Sequence record: NC_054903.1
Reading direction: 5' to 3' (one strand)
Source: Enterobacteria phage GiZh
DNA length: 64,000 nt
Part shown: positions 27,720 through 50,635 of the stretch, piece after piece
Numbering within the stretch: the stretch's first letter is position 1
How the letters are laid out: every line of letters starts with the position of its first letter
Made by a program: the position numbers and the translations under genes
Notes under the pieces: model-generated
What the model saw: the letters and a program-made list of their open reading frames with translations, nothing else
Told to the model about the DNA's origin: nothing
The model's database searches: none

Positions 27720-28190
27720 TTAATCATGTTTCCACACCCCATCGGTATTTGACCAAAGTCGCTGATTATCTGATCCTCGCCACAGCTTTTTGGTCGGAAG
27801 ATTTTTCTCATACTTCCCATCAATAATAACATCAACATATTTAAGCATTTCTAGTTGTTTAATATCTTCAAACTTATATCCTGTCCACAACCAAATGCTT
27901 TTACTGGGATAAAGATTTTTTACTGTTTGAACGATGCAATGAATAACATCTCGGTTATCAGGATAGAGAGGGTCTCCTCCAGTTATAGTTAATCCTTCTA
28001 TATAATCATTATTCAAACATTCAATTAATTGCTCTAGTGTTTCACCAGTGAATGGAATACCATTTCTAGCATTCCATGTTGATTTATTATAACACCCTTC
28101 ACATTTATGCAAACAACCTGTAACGAAAAGAACGACCCTGCAACCAGGGCCATTCACAAAATCACAGGGATAAAATCTATCGTAATTCAT
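27720..28190 (-). CDS. nrdG: anaerobic ribonucleotide reductase activating protein NrdG (radical SAM)
   Basis: 156 aa; N-terminal Cys cluster CDFVNGPGCRVVLFVTGCLHKCEGCYN; overlaps nrdD stop. Confidence 0.9.
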   Translation of the reverse strand: MNYDRFYPCDFVNGPGCRVVLFVTGCLHKCEGCYNKSTWNARNGIPFTGETLEQLIECLNNDYIEGLTITGGDPLYPDNRDVIHCIVQTVKNLYPSKSIWLWTGYKFEDIKQLEMLKYVDVIIDGKYEKNLPTKKLWRGSDNQRLWSNTDGVWKHD

Positions 28191-30004
28191 TGGTGTTTAA
28201 CCCTATGCATGATTTCTTTATTTTTACCGAGATTAAATCCGCGCTCGTTCGGATTTCCCAAATAACCACATGTTCTTCTTATGGTATTCATCTTTTTAGG
28301 ATCAGTTTCTCCACAAATAGAACAAACAAATCCGTTTTCAGTAGGAGTCATTTCATGGGTACTTCCACATGTAAAACATTTATCTACTGGCATATTAACA
28401 CCAAAATAATCTAAATGTTGTGCAGCATAATCCCATACGGCCTCAAGACCTTTTAAGTTATTTTTCATATCAGGAAGTTCAACATAAGAAATGTGACCAC
28501 CTGTCGCAATGAAATGATATGGCGCTTCACGAGAAATCTTTTCAAACGGAGTAATATTTTCTTCTACTGAAACATGGAAACTGTTAGTGTACCAGCCTTT
28601 ATCAGTAACATCTTTTACACTTCCATATTTTTCTGTATCAAGTTTACAGAAGCGATAACAAAGGTTTTCAGCAGGAGTCGAATATAAACTAAAAGCAAAT
28701 CCAGTTCTTTCAGTCCACTGTTTAAGATGAGCATTCATTTTAGTTAAAATTTCTCGTCCAATATCACGACCGACAAGAATATTCAATTCGTGAATACCAA
28801 TGTATCCTAAAGACACTGAACTTCTACCGTTTTTAAATAACTCAATTATGTCGTCATCAGGTTTAAGACGAACCCCGAATGCACCTTCTTGGTAAAGAAT
28901 AGGAGCAACAGTAGCTTTAACTCCTTTTAAGGAACTAATTCTACACATCAAAGCTTCAAAACACAGATCCATTCGTTCATTGAATAATTCAACAAATTTC
29001 TGTTCATTGAACTGTGTTCCAATATAAGAATCTAACGCGATGCGAGGAAGATTCAGTGTTACAACACCAAGATTATTACGTCCATCAAGAATTTCATTAC
29101 CAGTCGAATCTTTCCATACGCTCAAGAAACTACGGCAGCCCATTGGAGAAACCGGAACTGAAGAACCAGTAATAGCTTTATTATTCTTAGCTGAAATAAT
29201 ATCAGGATACATTCTTTTGCTTGCACATTCTAGAGCAAGCTGTTTAATATCATAGTTCGGATCGTCTTTATAAAGATTAACACCTTCTTCAACGAACATA
29301 ACAAGCTTAGGGAAAATAGGAGTTATCCCATCACGACCGAGACCTTTAATACGATTTTTCAGAATTGCTTTCTGAATCATTCGTTCAGTCCAGTCAGTTC
29401 CTGTACCAAATGTAATTGTTACAAAAGGTGTTTGTCCGTTTGAACTAAAGAGAGTATTTACTTCATATTCATAAGCTTGGAATGCATCGTATACGTCTTT
29501 TTCTGTTTTAGATTGAGCATAATTCAACGCATCAGCGATTTGCCATTTTTCTGCATCCTCAATATGTTTTGCATAGGTGCGTTTAACATAAGGAGAAAGT
29601 ACTTTATCTACATTCGCAAAAGTCGTTCCGCCATATTGATGGGAAGCAACTTGCGCAGTAATTTGTGCCATAATTGCAGTAGCAACGCCAATTGATTTAG
29701 GAGTTTCAATCTGTGCATTACCAAGCTTAAATCCGTTCTCAAGCATTCCTTTTAAATCTACTAAACAGCAATTAGTAAATGGAAGAGCAGGGGAATAATC
29801 AATATCATGGAAATGAATAATTCCGCTTTCATGCGCTTTCATAATAAAAGACGGGACCATATTTTTGGCAATGTGTTTAGACACAATACCAGCCATAAGG
29901 TCCCGTTGAGTTGGAAAAACACGAGAATCTTTATTAGCATTCTCGTTTAAAAGGTCTTTATTAGTTTTATGAATCAATCCTTCAATTTCTTTTTCAATTG
30001 TCAT
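28187..30004 (-). CDS. nrdD: anaerobic ribonucleoside-triphosphate reductase NrdD (glycyl radical enzyme)
   Basis: 605 aa uninterrupted; C-terminal glycyl radical motif RTCGYLGNP and Zn-ribbon CFTCGSTHE...CSICG. Confidence 0.95.
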   Translation of the reverse strand: MTIEKEIEGLIHKTNKDLLNENANKDSRVFPTQRDLMAGIVSKHIAKNMVPSFIMKAHESGIIHFHDIDYSPALPFTNCCLVDLKGMLENGFKLGNAQIETPKSIGVATAIMAQITAQVASHQYGGTTFANVDKVLSPYVKRTYAKHIEDAEKWQIADALNYAQSKTEKDVYDAFQAYEYEVNTLFSSNGQTPFVTITFGTGTDWTERMIQKAILKNRIKGLGRDGITPIFPKLVMFVEEGVNLYKDDPNYDIKQLALECASKRMYPDIISAKNNKAITGSSVPVSPMGCRSFLSVWKDSTGNEILDGRNNLGVVTLNLPRIALDSYIGTQFNEQKFVELFNERMDLCFEALMCRISSLKGVKATVAPILYQEGAFGVRLKPDDDIIELFKNGRSSVSLGYIGIHELNILVGRDIGREILTKMNAHLKQWTERTGFAFSLYSTPAENLCYRFCKLDTEKYGSVKDVTDKGWYTNSFHVSVEENITPFEKISREAPYHFIATGGHISYVELPDMKNNLKGLEAVWDYAAQHLDYFGVNMPVDKCFTCGSTHEMTPTENGFVCSICGETDPKKMNTIRRTCGYLGNPNERGFNLGKNKEIMHRVKHQ

Positions 30005-46490: not shown

Positions 46491-46952
46491 TCATTGAGTT
46501 TTAATTACTGCTTTAGAAGCCTTTCCTGGTAAACGACGACTGTTGATAATTGCCATCCTGCATTGAAGTGACGGGTTTTTGAACTTCTCATTAGGCTTAC
46601 AAACCGTAAATCCAAGCCAAAGATTTCCATCTGTGATTTCTAAACGTCCAGGACGATATTCAACCCCATCAATAAAATCCTCGTCAATGTCAGGACGCGG
46701 AGGCATACTCAGGAATTCATTAACTTCTAAAACATGGTCTTTTATTTTATGGAATAATTCAAAAACATATGTCTCATCAATCTCCCGTTGAATTGCACGA
46801 TCAAGAAGATGCTGAGAATATTTTAGATGAAACGATGAGACCCCTGCTGCTTTTGATGCCTCACGAATCTCATTGTTAATTTGACGAAACTCCGACTCAA
46901 AATGACGACGAAGCTTATTTCGACGGATAAAAACTTCTGTGTTGATAGTCAT
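46491..46952 (-). CDS. regB: endoribonuclease RegB
   Basis: 153 aa, size and position as T4 regB; early promoter immediately upstream; ATG verified. Confidence 0.7.
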   Translation of the reverse strand: MTINTEVFIRRNKLRRHFESEFRQINNEIREASKAAGVSSFHLKYSQHLLDRAIQREIDETYVFELFHKIKDHVLEVNEFLSMPPRPDIDEDFIDGVEYRPGRLEITDGNLWLGFTVCKPNEKFKNPSLQCRMAIINSRRLPGKASKAVIKTQ

Positions 46953-46979
46953 GTTATTCTCCTCTTAACTGATAGAAAA

Positions 46980-47010
46980 ATTATACCACAGTCAAGAGGA
47001 AAAGTAAACA
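46980..47010 (-). promoter_or_regulatory. T4-type early promoter upstream of regB
   Basis: minus strand GTTTACT, 17 nt, TATAAT. Confidence 0.55.
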
Positions 47011-47011
47011 G

Positions 47012-47332
47012 TTATTCTTTAAATCTAATCAATTTATTCATAGACTTTGAAACTTCTGCACGAACCTCACGTAAGTTTTTAAGCTGTTCAAGACGCTGCT
47101 CATAGTAAGCAATTTCATCTTCTTCGAGACAGTCCTGTGAATCTTCTTTAAGATAACGTGCATAGTCCTGAAAAGCTTTACGGACTACTTCCTGAAAGTC
47201 ATCAAGACTTTGAATTTTCTTAGGAGCGGCAGATACACGACGAGGTGCAGTATAATACTCATAACCAAACCCTGCACTTAATTGAGCCATTAGTATTTTT
47301 CCTCTGGTTGGAACACTGCACGACAAGCCCAC
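47012..47332 (-). CDS. hypothetical protein (vs.3 position)
   Basis: 106-aa ORF. Confidence 0.45.
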
Positions 47333-47592
47333 ATACTGGCTTCTTTGAGTTTCGTTTTAGCAATAGTTAACTGATCGAGGCTTTCAGCGTAATTCTTCGC
47401 GAGTTCATCATCTTCACAGCTATCAAATGCTTCCCAAAATTCATCGTATAAAGCATCAAAGATAAGTCCTAAACGAACTTCAGCGTCTTTAATAGCATTT
47501 ACTTTACCGATTTTTTCGTCGGTATGCGGCTTATAACCTTTAATATCTTCAATCATATTTGACTTCCTCACCAGTGCATAAATCATATTCAA
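47290..47592 (-). CDS. hypothetical protein (vs.4 position; possible Acb2-type cyclic-nucleotide sponge)
   Basis: 100-aa ORF; call by synteny with T4 vs.4 only. Confidence 0.35.
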
Positions 47593-47770
47593 CTAAACGA
47601 ATAGGTTCATGAATGCCATATCCTTGAACAGAAATTTCTGTCGTAGGATAAATTCCATCAATATCACCCATATTCCAGGCTTCATTAAATTGCTGTTCGC
47701 CTGAATTACTAAACCACTCGGCGAAAGCATTTAGCACATCTTTAGAACCTTCAATAATTATCTTTGCCAT
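47549..47770 (-). CDS. hypothetical protein
   Basis: 73-aa ORF. Confidence 0.45.
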   Translation of the reverse strand: MAKIIIEGSKDVLNAFAEWFSNSGEQQFNEAWNMGDIDGIYPTTEISVQGYGIHEPIRLVEYDLCTGEEVKYD

Positions 47771-48132
47771 TACAAACTCTCGGTGAAGGTACGAGCGATA
47801 ACGTCGCGCTGCTGTTCCGGAGTCAGAGAATTAAAGCGAACTGCATAACCTGATACACGGATGGTCAGCTGCGGATATTTTTCCGGATGCTTAACTGCAT
47901 CTTCCAGAGTTTCACGACGCAGAACGTTAACGTTCAGGTGTTGACCACCTTCAATTTTAACTGTAGGCTGTGGTTCAATTTCAATTTCACGGGCATGCAA
48001 ACCGTAGAAAATTTCTGGGTCTACAAAAGAGTCCTCTTTAAAGGTTTTAGAGACAATAATTCGTGCTTGAATACCATCTTCAAAATAAATAGTACCTTTA
48101 TGTGTGCCTTCAAGAATTTGATATGCTTTCAT
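47770..48132 (-). CDS. autonomous glycyl radical cofactor (GrcA/YfiD-like)
   Basis: 120 aa; C-terminal glycyl radical motif [25 protein letters not shown]. Confidence 0.75.
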
Positions 48133-48138
48133 ATAACC

Positions 48139-48519
48139 TCAATTAGAAAATAAATTTATCCAAGATTGTTCTTTAATTAAAAATGGCTCAGAATCATATG
48201 CCATTAAACTTTGGGTAATTAGTCCTTTAAAAGGCCCATCAATAAATTCCATGGTAAAATATGGAATTTTATTCATTAATCTTGCATTAGGAGCAGTGCA
48301 CAAAACTCTGCATCCTTTGAATACGCCTTTTTGTAATTTGTATTGCTTGGGATAAAATTCGCTTAAAATGTTATTATTTGCCAAAATTTCAAAATGATTT
48401 ACCAATTTATTTTTAATAGTTTTTGGCGAAAAATAGAGATATTCGAAAAGCTGTGTGTCTGTCATCATTGCATTCCGATTACGAAAAACTGTGGACGAGT
48501 AATACCACCAATGCAACAT
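48139..48519 (-). CDS. hypothetical protein
   Basis: 126-aa ORF; overlaps upstream ORF by 55 nt. Confidence 0.4.
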   Translation of the reverse strand: MLHWWYYSSTVFRNRNAMMTDTQLFEYLYFSPKTIKNKLVNHFEILANNNILSEFYPKQYKLQKGVFKGCRVLCTAPNARLMNKIPYFTMEFIDGPFKGLITQSLMAYDSEPFLIKEQSWINLFSN

Positions 48520-49052
48520 TTACTATTACAGCAGTAGTGTACAGTGTCAATATGGACGCTATAAATCTTATCCATATCAGGAGATTTGACAGGCTCATCA
48601 ATTATATACAAAATTCGCGAAAGCGATAAACCTCTGAACTTGCTTCCTTTATTACCGATAAAACTACGGACAGAATCGGTAAATAAACGGAATCGAATAT
48701 CATCGCTAGAATAACGAGAAAATTCTTTTTTAATGTGGCCTGCAGAAATTTTAGCGTAAGCTGAAGTATTAGAAAGAACAATAACTGTTCCACCATCATA
48801 CAGCCAATTAGCGGCAAAGTTAGTTACTGCAGTTGATTTACCGGATTGACGTCCACCATCTATACGAAGTGTGCAGTACTGTTTAAGTAATTCTTCAAAT
48901 GGTGGGATATAATCGTTTTTACAAATTTCTTCTACTCTAGCATCAGAATGGTGTGTAAAAGCATTCATCAGGGATAGATAAGGACCAGTTAAAAATGTTC
49001 TCATTTTATTCTCTCTAAATTTGGGCCATTCCGTGGCGCATGAATTGTCCAT
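48465..49052 (-). CDS. P-loop NTPase
   Basis: 195 aa; Walker A GGRQSGKST, Walker B-like LYIIDEP; start may be internal Met. Confidence 0.5.
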   Translation of the reverse strand: MDNSCATEWPKFRENKMRTFLTGPYLSLMNAFTHHSDARVEEICKNDYIPPFEELLKQYCTLRIDGGRQSGKSTAVTNFAANWLYDGGTVIVLSNTSAYAKISAGHIKKEFSRYSSDDIRFRLFTDSVRSFIGNKGSKFRGLSLSRILYIIDEPVKSPDMDKIYSVHIDTVHYCCNSKCCIGGITRPQFFVIGMQ

Positions 49053-49145
49053 TTCTGTATTTACCCATTACCGCACTCAGGCTCGACCTTATCACAGGTT
49101 GGCGGGAATCCCTCACAGAATCATGAGGTCCAGCTTGTTCCCATA

Positions 49146-49619
49146 TTATTTGAACGATTTAACGTACTGAATAGAACCTTTACTATTCACAAAGGCAATT
49201 TTACCATTTTTATTATACATGGTAGCAGTACGTTGATAACCATAAGTTTGTTTACCAGATTGATAACCAACTAATGCGAAATTATCTTCGCCCATTTTAT
49301 TCTGTTTAGCGCGAATGCGTTCATGACCATGTGCCATAAGAACCTTAGCATCACCAGTTGCAATGGATCGACGAGTTTTTTCATCTTCAACTGTATTAAC
49401 AAAGTCGTCAAATGAATCAAATTTAGCATGAGATTTATTATACAATTTTCCATCTACTGCATAATTATATCCCTGTACATCCATCTCAACTTCTGTACCA
49501 TCATCCAATACAGCAGTGATTTTTTGACCTTTTTTAAATTTCAAAAGATCAGTAAAAGATTCAGCAATAATTTGAGAATTAATAGCTGCTTCAGTGATAA
49601 ATTCTTGATATGTTTTCAT
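49146..49619 (-). CDS. internal protein candidate (capsid-targeting-like N-terminus)
   Basis: 157 aa; N-terminus MKTYQEFITEA matches the recalled CTS of T4 internal proteins. Confidence 0.6.
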   Translation of the reverse strand: MKTYQEFITEAAINSQIIAESFTDLLKFKKGQKITAVLDDGTEVEMDVQGYNYAVDGKLYNKSHAKFDSFDDFVNTVEDEKTRRSIATGDAKVLMAHGHERIRAKQNKMGEDNFALVGYQSGKQTYGYQRTATMYNKNGKIAFVNSKGSIQYVKSFK

Positions 49620-49628
49620 ATGTTTCCT

Positions 49629-50045
49629 TTAAATGTAAATATTTTTACCGTAATACTTATACCAATGTGGTTTCATTAAAATTTTTTCATCAAGTCGTTG
49701 TTGACTCAATTTAATAGCTGATTTGCATGGATTATAATCATTTTTCCATTCTACTGGAATATCGCTGATGTCAGGAACTTCAGTATCTTTTATACTGAAC
49801 CCGCGTTTTAAGCATTCCGTTATAATGTCTAATTGACTCTTTCGCAAAAATTCTAACTTATCGTAAAAGAACGTAACATGACCAGAACCTAAAATAAACT
49901 CGGAAGATATTTTAAAATCTTTAACGCGCTTACCGTTTGCCACATGCTTACGAACTATACCAAAAACACGCGGCAATTCACGGTATTCTGCGATTAAATG
50001 TTGATCAGCAAGTTCAGATACTAAAGTCAAATTAATACGAGTCAT
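49629..50045 (-). CDS. denV: endonuclease V (pyrimidine dimer glycosylase) DenV
   Basis: 138 aa; [29 protein letters not shown]... matches recalled T4 endo V. Confidence 0.95.
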
Positions 50046-50070
50046 TTTATCCCTCCAATTAACTGTGAAT

Positions 50071-50101
50071 ATACTATCACAATTCTAGGAGAAAGTAAAC
50101 A
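50071..50101 (-). promoter_or_regulatory. T4-type early promoter upstream of denV
   Basis: minus strand GTTTACT, 17 nt, TAGTAT. Confidence 0.5.
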
Positions 50102-50104
50102 ACT

Positions 50105-50635
<531 letters not shown>

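Follow-up and report, generated by a model that had tools for sequence, protein, structure and literature searches.

In the window, by which we mean the whole 64-kb stretch of DNA analyzed and which is a segment of a T4-like (Tequatrovirus) genome, the vs.6 gene is an intact open reading frame running from ATG to TAA (Table 1). Having its own start, stop, and Shine-Dalgarno sequence, it encodes a stand-alone small protein of the ~14-kDa class. The TGA stop of vs.7 overlaps the GAGG of vs.6, and the TAA stop of vs.6 in turn overlaps the ATG of the next gene; the junction between the vs.7 stop and the vs.6 Shine-Dalgarno sequence, TTGAGGTTATATG, is also present in T4, JK45, and mar005P1. The gene order, vs.8-vs.7-vs.6-vs.5-vs.4(Acb2)-vs.3-regB, is as in T4. 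PHROG 1209 was matched at 1.2e-62 over residues 1 to 120, i.e., the full length of the protein, and the neighbors belong to PHROG 2049 (vs.7) and PHROG 1986 (vs.5); this full-length similarity and the position between vs.7 and vs.5 place the gene in the T4 vs.6 orthologous group. A promoter and terminator scan of 46900..49700 gave counts not above those of shuffled sequence, and no dedicated promoter could be inferred.

Table 1. Features in the window and, in the last four rows, in other records
Feature	Coordinates	Strand	Basis or remark
vs.6 (grcA-like) CDS, 120 aa, 13.8 kDa, autonomous glycyl radical cofactor	47770..48132	-	ORF listing; PHROG 1209; T4 comparison
GAGG Shine-Dalgarno sequence of vs.6	48137..48140	-	Direct reading of sequence; 4 nt upstream of ATG
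TGA stop of vs.7	48139..48141		
Phage-type 5' half (gene nt 1-178, residues 1-59)	47955..48132	-	GC, codon alignment, HMMER alignment, AF2
Glycyl radical domain 3' half (gene nt 179-363, residues 60-120)	47770..47954	-	Identity to E. coli grcA, GC, tree
Codon of Gly95, predicted radical-bearing glycine (= GrcA G102, PflB G734)	47848..47850	-	Alignments to 6OWR, PflB 1H16/1CM5
nrdG, radical-SAM activase of NrdD	27720..28190	-	Pfam Fer4_12 4.7e-48, Radical_SAM 2.7e-07
nrdD, class III ribonucleotide reductase, without intron	28187..30004	-	Pfam NRDD 2.1e-171
vs.4 homolog	47290..47592	-	Pfam Acb2_Tad1_hairpin 1.4e-19
Internal virion protein gene	49146..49619	-	PHROG 3155, 6e-102
denV	49629..50045	-	
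Lysozyme e	50105..50599	-	
vs.6 homolog inside nrdD-nrdG(-nrdC-nrdH) cluster	L003 3525-4378; L092 3501-4384; L004 2177-4824; L091 1958-5131		Aeromonas T4-like and Asteriusvirus-type jumbo phages
vs.6 homolog of Morganella phage vB_Mm5	L088 2237-2890		CDS of 654 nt
vs.6 homologs of ATCCa and Ra_O-2	L144 67-429; L146 67-429		Raoultella-type tract; mosaic tract
grcA on Klebsiella sp. WOUb02 plasmid unnamed4	L028 601-981		Full length

Judged by its sequence, the gene is the orthologue of T4 vs.6 (Y06I; NP_049730; UniProt P13316, GRCA_BPT4). The two proteins share a length of 120 aa and 119 of 120 residues, T4 having H73 where the window protein has R73, the residue of E. coli GrcA. At the DNA level the identity is 97 to 98%, with a few synonymous changes at the 3' end, and the neighbors are shared as well (vs.7 upstream; vs.5 and vs.4 downstream). 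In RefSeq, T4 vs.6 bears the name "autonomous glycyl radical cofactor GrcA." Public collections already contain the exact window protein, on 187 contigs; the gene was found in 755 phage records by megablast, and tblastn detected homologs in 1,590. Straboviridae, T5-like Demerecviridae, and Asteriusvirus-type jumbo phages are the three phage groups in which the gene occurs. Both the gene and its function are thus already known, from RefSeq and UniProt annotation and from biochemistry published in 2001, and the identification by itself adds nothing.

Public annotation of this family is uneven. Phage records label the 120-aa protein "pyruvate formate-lyase," "2-ketobutyrate formate-lyase," "formate acetyltransferase," "ribonucleotide reductase subunit," or "hypothetical protein"; none of the enzyme names is correct for a radical-domain protein of 14 kDa. 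Assignment to pyruvate formate-lyase (PFL) itself, an enzyme of ~760 aa (TIGR01255), was rejected, as the score was 88.9 bits against a cutoff of 994 and only residues 56 to 120 aligned, to profile positions 680 to 744. Some database entries named E. coli, Salmonella enterica, or Enterococcus faecalis also contain the phage protein, on contigs of ~166 to 169 kb or on fragments; such entries probably represent either phage genomes or contaminating sequence in assemblies of bacteria. In Morganella phage vB_Mm5, the annotated 5' end lies ~290 nt beyond that of all other homologs, and the alignment places an internal ATG at the usual start, so the annotation is either overextended or reflects a true N-terminal fusion.

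The sequence-only reading had recognized a YfiD/GrcA-type glycyl radical motif at the C terminus, in 25 residues that correspond to residues 92 to 116 of vs.6, and every comparison bore this out. Pfam Gly_radical (PF01228) was matched at an E value of 2.8e-18 (66.8 bits against a cutoff of 22.2) and the structure of E. coli YfiD/GrcA (PDB 6OWR) at 8.6e-42, values that chance matches would not approach. An alignment with E. coli GrcA and the T4 homolog had been proposed as the check, with loss of the conserved glycine as the outcome that would speak against the motif; the glycine is present, as G95. Residues 61 to 120 are identical to GrcA (P68066) residues 68 to 127 at 60 of 60 positions, including the RVSGYAVRF loop and the C-terminal helix. 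PflB residues 697 to 759 aligned to residues 58 to 120 at an E value of 5e-26, with ~85% identity over 63 residues as counted from the HMMER alignment, and the radical glycine of PflB (PDB 1H16), G734, falls on G95. This glycine is invariant among 60 aligned phage and bacterial sequences, an alignment in which it is numbered G94 because M1 was omitted. The RVSGY loop together with the conserved glycine makes this a radical domain of the PFL type. When the AlphaFold2 (AF2) model was compared with experimental structures of glycyl radical enzymes, its C-terminal part superposed on their radical domains at 0.8 to 1.5 Å over 41 to 45 residues. The phage protein lacks the 690-residue catalytic barrel of PflB with Cys418/Cys419; like E. 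coli GrcA, it is a small stand-alone protein, 7 residues shorter than its bacterial counterpart. Unlike E. coli grcA, the phage gene lies in an AT-rich phage context without the FNR/acid-regulated host promoter.

The two halves of the gene have different histories. The 5' half (178 nt) has a GC content of 0.34 and a GC3 of 0.20 and, when aligned by codons, shares ~40% of its nucleotides with E. coli grcA; the 3' half (185 nt) has a GC content of 0.48 and a GC3 of 0.43 and matches the grcA of 5,335 E. coli records at 96.8% identity. Within the 3' half, mismatches to E. coli grcA occur only at gene nt 303, 348, 351, 354, 357, and 358. The host-derived (Escherichia grcA) tract covers gene nt ~181 to 345-347, and the final ~15 nt, where the ribosome-binding site of vs.5 and its start are found, are phage type. 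When the 3' 180 nt were placed in a neighbor-joining tree together with bacterial grcA genes from 80 species representatives, the window and T4 sequences nested inside Escherichia. The junction between phage-type and host-type sequence is common to the window, T4, JK45, and Mosigvirus mar005P1. Protein constraint alone was rejected as the cause of the DNA identity, since these 60 residues are also encoded, all of them unchanged, in Slopekvirus 150040 and Citrobacter phage Margaery, whose nucleotide identity is only 83 to 84%. The gene is a chimera in which a phage-type N-terminal half is joined to host-derived radical domain DNA.

The N-terminal half is far more divergent. The first ~20 residues do not align to E. 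coli GrcA, and identity to GrcA residues 28 to 67 is ~33% (a hand count from the HMMER alignment). A pattern of Q-I, AR-IV-K, ED, and RE is nevertheless kept across the 60 phage and bacterial sequences, and by this measure the half is distantly homologous to its GrcA counterpart. Against the NCBIfam GrcA model (TIGR04365), with residues 20 to 120 aligned, the protein scored 153.3 bits, below the equivalog cutoff of 170, because its N-terminal half has diverged. AF2 predicts that the N-terminal 50 residues form a small four-strand beta domain (pLDDT 86 to 89), followed by a linker with a pLDDT of <50. A Foldseek search of the model against the PDB matched the radical domain alone and returned no significant fold match for the beta domain; its KOW/ribosomal-protein matches (probability 0.1 to 0.2) were treated as noise. 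In E. coli YfiD, residues 1 to 60 are disordered by NMR and are required for binding of cleaved PFL and for efficient radical installation (PMC8683613). The bacterial half is thus reported to lack order in solution, whereas its phage counterpart is predicted to be folded. The recombination junction, at phage residues 60/61 and GrcA residues 67/68, adjoins the YfiD N-terminal domain boundary.

What such a protein may do is suggested by work on its near twin. T4 Y06I and E. coli YfiD are described as ~14-kDa spare-part proteins (Wagner et al. 2001, as cited in PMC8683613 and PMC13450708). According to the same report, as it is cited in PMC8683613, Y06I, like YfiD, takes up a glycyl radical from the PFL activase; in both citing reviews, of which PMC13450708 dates from 2026, it is credited with restoring in vitro the activity of oxygen-cleaved PFL as YfiD does. 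By these accounts, YfiD and Y06I still count as the only validated examples. This biochemistry reaches us via secondary citations and is transferred from a protein that differs at one residue. With this analogy in hand, we consider it very probable that the vs.6 product is a GrcA/YfiD-type spare part for oxygen-damaged host PFL, with a host-derived radical domain. The earlier suggestion of a spare-part role is upheld to the extent that it concerned host PFL, for which both the reported Y06I activity and the GrcA/PflB-type domain speak. The searchable literature yielded no in vivo phenotype for a vs.6 mutant.

By analogy with the near-identical T4 protein, PflA, the host PFL activase, would generate the radical at G95, the conserved glycine. 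The vs.6 protein would then dock on a PflB that oxygen has cleaved at G734 and so deprived of its own radical domain, with the phage-type N-terminal half as the counterpart of the YfiD half that mediates binding to cleaved PFL, and the docked protein would restore the conversion of pyruvate to acetyl-CoA and formate. As T4 shuts down host gene expression, an infected cell may be left without new GrcA, which the phage would supply. Under microaerobic conditions, the benefit could lie in continued production of ATP and acetyl-CoA and in a supply of formate.

The divergence of the N-terminal half allows a different role. Through this half, the phage protein could interact with PflB, intact or cleaved, or with TdcE in another way than the host protein does, or the phage protein could sequester PflA; it would then act mainly as a competitor or modulator that reroutes host fermentation instead of preserving it. 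The half that governs binding of cleaved PFL in YfiD is the one that is only ~33% identical to the host's, it is kept as a distinct phage type across phage families, and the beta domain predicted by AF2 stands against the disorder of YfiD residues 1 to 60. Because of this divergence, seen also in the TIGR04365 score (153.3 bits versus 170), the binding behavior of the phage protein could differ from that of host GrcA. Yet T4 Y06I is reported, in the accounts cited above, to restore PFL activity like YfiD, and the radical glycine and every other residue of the domain have been retained, which would be needless in a mere binder. We therefore regard a modulator as unlikely.

The sequence-only reading had also pointed to the anaerobic ribonucleotide reductase NrdD and its activase NrdG, and both are indeed encoded in the window (Table 1). 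It had placed vs.6 in the same region as nrdD, which is true only in the loose sense that the genes share the 64-kb window: they are 17.8 kb and, by analogy with the T4 map, ~35 genes apart. The window NrdD is 100% identical to T4 NrdD over residues 181 to 605 and 99.4% identical over residues 1 to 179 and carries C79, M288/C290, and G580 as the T4 enzyme does. In the window nrdD overlaps nrdG by 4 nt (27720..30004). In T4, a group I intron (I-TevII) interrupts nrdD, and a homing endonuclease gene, mobC, separates nrdD from nrdG; both are lacking here.

One rival reading makes vs.6 a spare part for the phage's own NrdD, whose C-terminal radical domain it would replace after cleavage by oxygen at G580, with NrdG as activase. 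Elsewhere a vs.6 homolog does lie between nrdD and nrdG or directly after them, with 4-nt overlaps with nrdG; reviews allow that glycyl radical enzymes besides PFL may have spare parts (PMC8683613, PMC13450708); and Nolan et al. (2006; PMC1524935), who found vs.6 kept in 6 of 6 T4-like genomes, speculated on a role in nucleotide metabolism. The proteins themselves argue otherwise. A BLASTP comparison of the vs.6 protein with the window NrdD gave no significant similarity (E value of 2.7), and the radical site was not aligned. In NrdD the site reads RRTCGYLGNP (G580) and is preceded by the Cys-rich CFTCGS...CSICGE; vs.6 has RVSGYAVRF and shows no RxCGY loop after a Cys-rich motif as in an NrdD-type domain. 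Since the domain is 100% GrcA type, ~85% PflB type, and without significant similarity to NrdD, we take vs.6 as a part for PflB and not for NrdD, and since its DNA was copied from host grcA and its sequence is 100% identical to GrcA, its specificity is expected to be tied to PflB and PflA. Direct repair of NrdD, the portion of the earlier proposal that did not stand, is rejected on these grounds and has very little probability left.

A spare part for PFL may still serve nucleotide synthesis at one remove. The reductant of T4 NrdD is formate, and PFL is the fermentative source of formate (PMC4390871). Because the window NrdD is nearly the same as the formate-using T4 enzyme, from which we infer that it too is formate dependent, and because PFL makes formate, an indirect contribution of vs.6 to anaerobic dNTP synthesis is plausible: formate from repaired PFL would be the reductant of the phage's own class III enzyme. 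In Aeromonas phages phiAS5 and AsFcp_4, the gene order is nrdD-nrdG-vs.6-nrdC-nrdH, and nrdG and vs.6 overlap by 4 nt; in the jumbo phages PHA46 and UE-S1, the orders are nrdD-vs.6-nrdG and nrdD-vs.6-orf-nrdG, respectively. The radical domains of these cluster-embedded homologs are diverged PFL-type domains (43 to 69% identical to the window protein), not NrdD-type ones, and the synteny fits an indirect link via formate. At the level of lineages, NrdD was found in 2,912 phage records, including T5, and the vs.6-bearing groups detected (Straboviridae, T5-like, and Asteriusvirus-type jumbo phages) are all among NrdD-bearing phages. The formate rationale draws on the synteny in other phages and on pathway logic, vs.6 in the window not being beside nrdD and nrdG.

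With a 3' half that shares 97% of its DNA sequence with E. coli grcA and is host-like in GC, vs.6 might be no more than a recently captured fragment without selected function, but this is hardly credible for an intact, full-length reading frame that occupies the same position in hundreds of T-even genomes, has an old, phage-typical 5' half, occurs in all three phage groups named above, and, in lineages without a recent host tract, keeps 60 of 60 residues at 16 to 17% nucleotide divergence. In Slopekvirus 150040 and Margaery only 33 to 34 of the 60 codons behind these residues are identical, a sign of purifying selection.

Identities of the radical domain tract to bacterial grcA alleles were computed over gene nt 190 to 338 (149 nt; Table 2). 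A DNA-pattern scan of metagenome contigs yielded 43 bacterial grcA contigs and 3 Jiaodavirus-type phage contigs, and bacterial alleles were assigned by exact-protein lookup to the K. pneumoniae complex (GRCA_KLEP7), Raoultella ornithinolytica, and the K. oxytoca group. K. pneumoniae grcA was absent from the 80 GTDB loci and from the top 120 protein matches and was taken from the metagenome contigs. For L100 and L104, which are metagenome assembled, an assembly chimera with host reads is conceivable, and the comparison was repeated on isolate genomes; Roth01, ATCCa, pzk-kv6-1, KMI13, PSE-D1, and Ra_O-2 gave the same allele classes as the metagenome contigs.

Table 2. Best-matching grcA alleles of the radical domain tract (identical positions of 149)
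Phage or contig	Best allele	Identity
Window	E. coli	148/149; <=132 to any other allele
T4	E. coli	147/149; <=132 to any other allele
Contig L104	K. pneumoniae type	149/149
Isolates Roth01, PSE-D1	K. pneumoniae type	146/149
Isolate KMI13	Second K. pneumoniae-like allele (L102)	147/149
Contig L100	Raoultella type	149/149; 137 to K. pneumoniae type
Isolate ATCCa	Raoultella type	148/149; 136 to K. pneumoniae type
Isolate pzk-kv6-1	Raoultella type	145/149; 137 to K. pneumoniae type
Ra_O-2, Roth20	Mosaic or unsampled donors	Best 142-143/149

The Escherichia-type tract occurs in Tequatrovirus and Mosigvirus, and K. pneumoniae- or Raoultella-type tracts occur in Jiaodavirus isolates whose 5' halves are 97 to 100% identical. 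Among the Jiaodavirus genes, the 5' halves are mutually identical at 172 to 178 of 178 positions and the tracts at 135 to 148 of 149. Both ends of the tract fall in conserved anchors, one where GAAGGYGGTCA begins and the other near nt 339 to 348. The transfer ran from the bacteria to the phages, since the grcA alleles of the bacteria follow species and show bacterial codon usage. Taken together, this allele comparison indicates recurrent host-to-phage gene conversion of the radical domain tract, in which homologous recombination, with the conserved stretches as anchors, has again and again put the grcA sequence of whatever enterobacterium was the host in place of the DNA of the tract. As the E. 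coli-type and Klebsiella-type domains differ by two residues only (E77L and K81E), the conversions may be largely neutral consequences of homology and not adaptation. Phage ATCCa was isolated on K. pneumoniae and has a Raoultella-type tract (148/149), and Ra_O-2 was isolated on Raoultella and has a mosaic tract; the tract may record earlier hosts, the donor not always being the isolation host.

The conversion and the formate link can be joined into a single reading. In it, the tract is repeatedly overwritten by the grcA of the current host, which makes it a readout of host-to-T-even recombination and of host history and keeps the part matched to PflB and PflA, and the value of the gene lies in PFL-made formate for the formate-dependent NrdD, which would explain the placement with nrdD and nrdG elsewhere. 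In our judgment the case for this joint reading is evenly balanced. The searchable literature contained no description of the host-derived mosaic or of the formate rationale in T4-like phages, an absence that is no proof of novelty, and only the converted tract and the nrdD-nrdG synteny in other phages might be new.

The mosaics of psbA in cyanophages are a precedent for a host-derived metabolic gene with exchange between host and phage. As in vs.6, a lytic phage carries a host-derived metabolic gene with intragenic tracts that match the allele of the current host. Unlike in the psbA mosaics, the vs.6 tract is ~160 nt long and confined to the conserved radical domain, the phages are T-even phages of enterobacteria, and the donors are resolved to the species level (E. 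coli, K. pneumoniae complex, and Raoultella). The gene offers a compact case from nature, simple to score, of recombination between lytic T-even phages and the chromosome of the host. Donor-resolved tracts of ~160 nt could mark recent host history and could be used to measure the frequency of natural host-to-phage homologous exchange. On the bacterial side, one full-length grcA was found on a large plasmid, the 275,668-bp plasmid unnamed4 of Klebsiella sp. WOUb02 (Table 1).

Two other features of the window deserve mention. The vs.4 homolog, two genes downstream of vs.6, corresponds to the anti-CBASS cyclic-nucleotide sponge Acb2. Lysozyme gene e adjoins denV, after which lies a single internal virion protein gene; in T4, ipIII and ipII lie between e and denV, and the internal-protein cassette of the window (49146..50599) is arranged differently.
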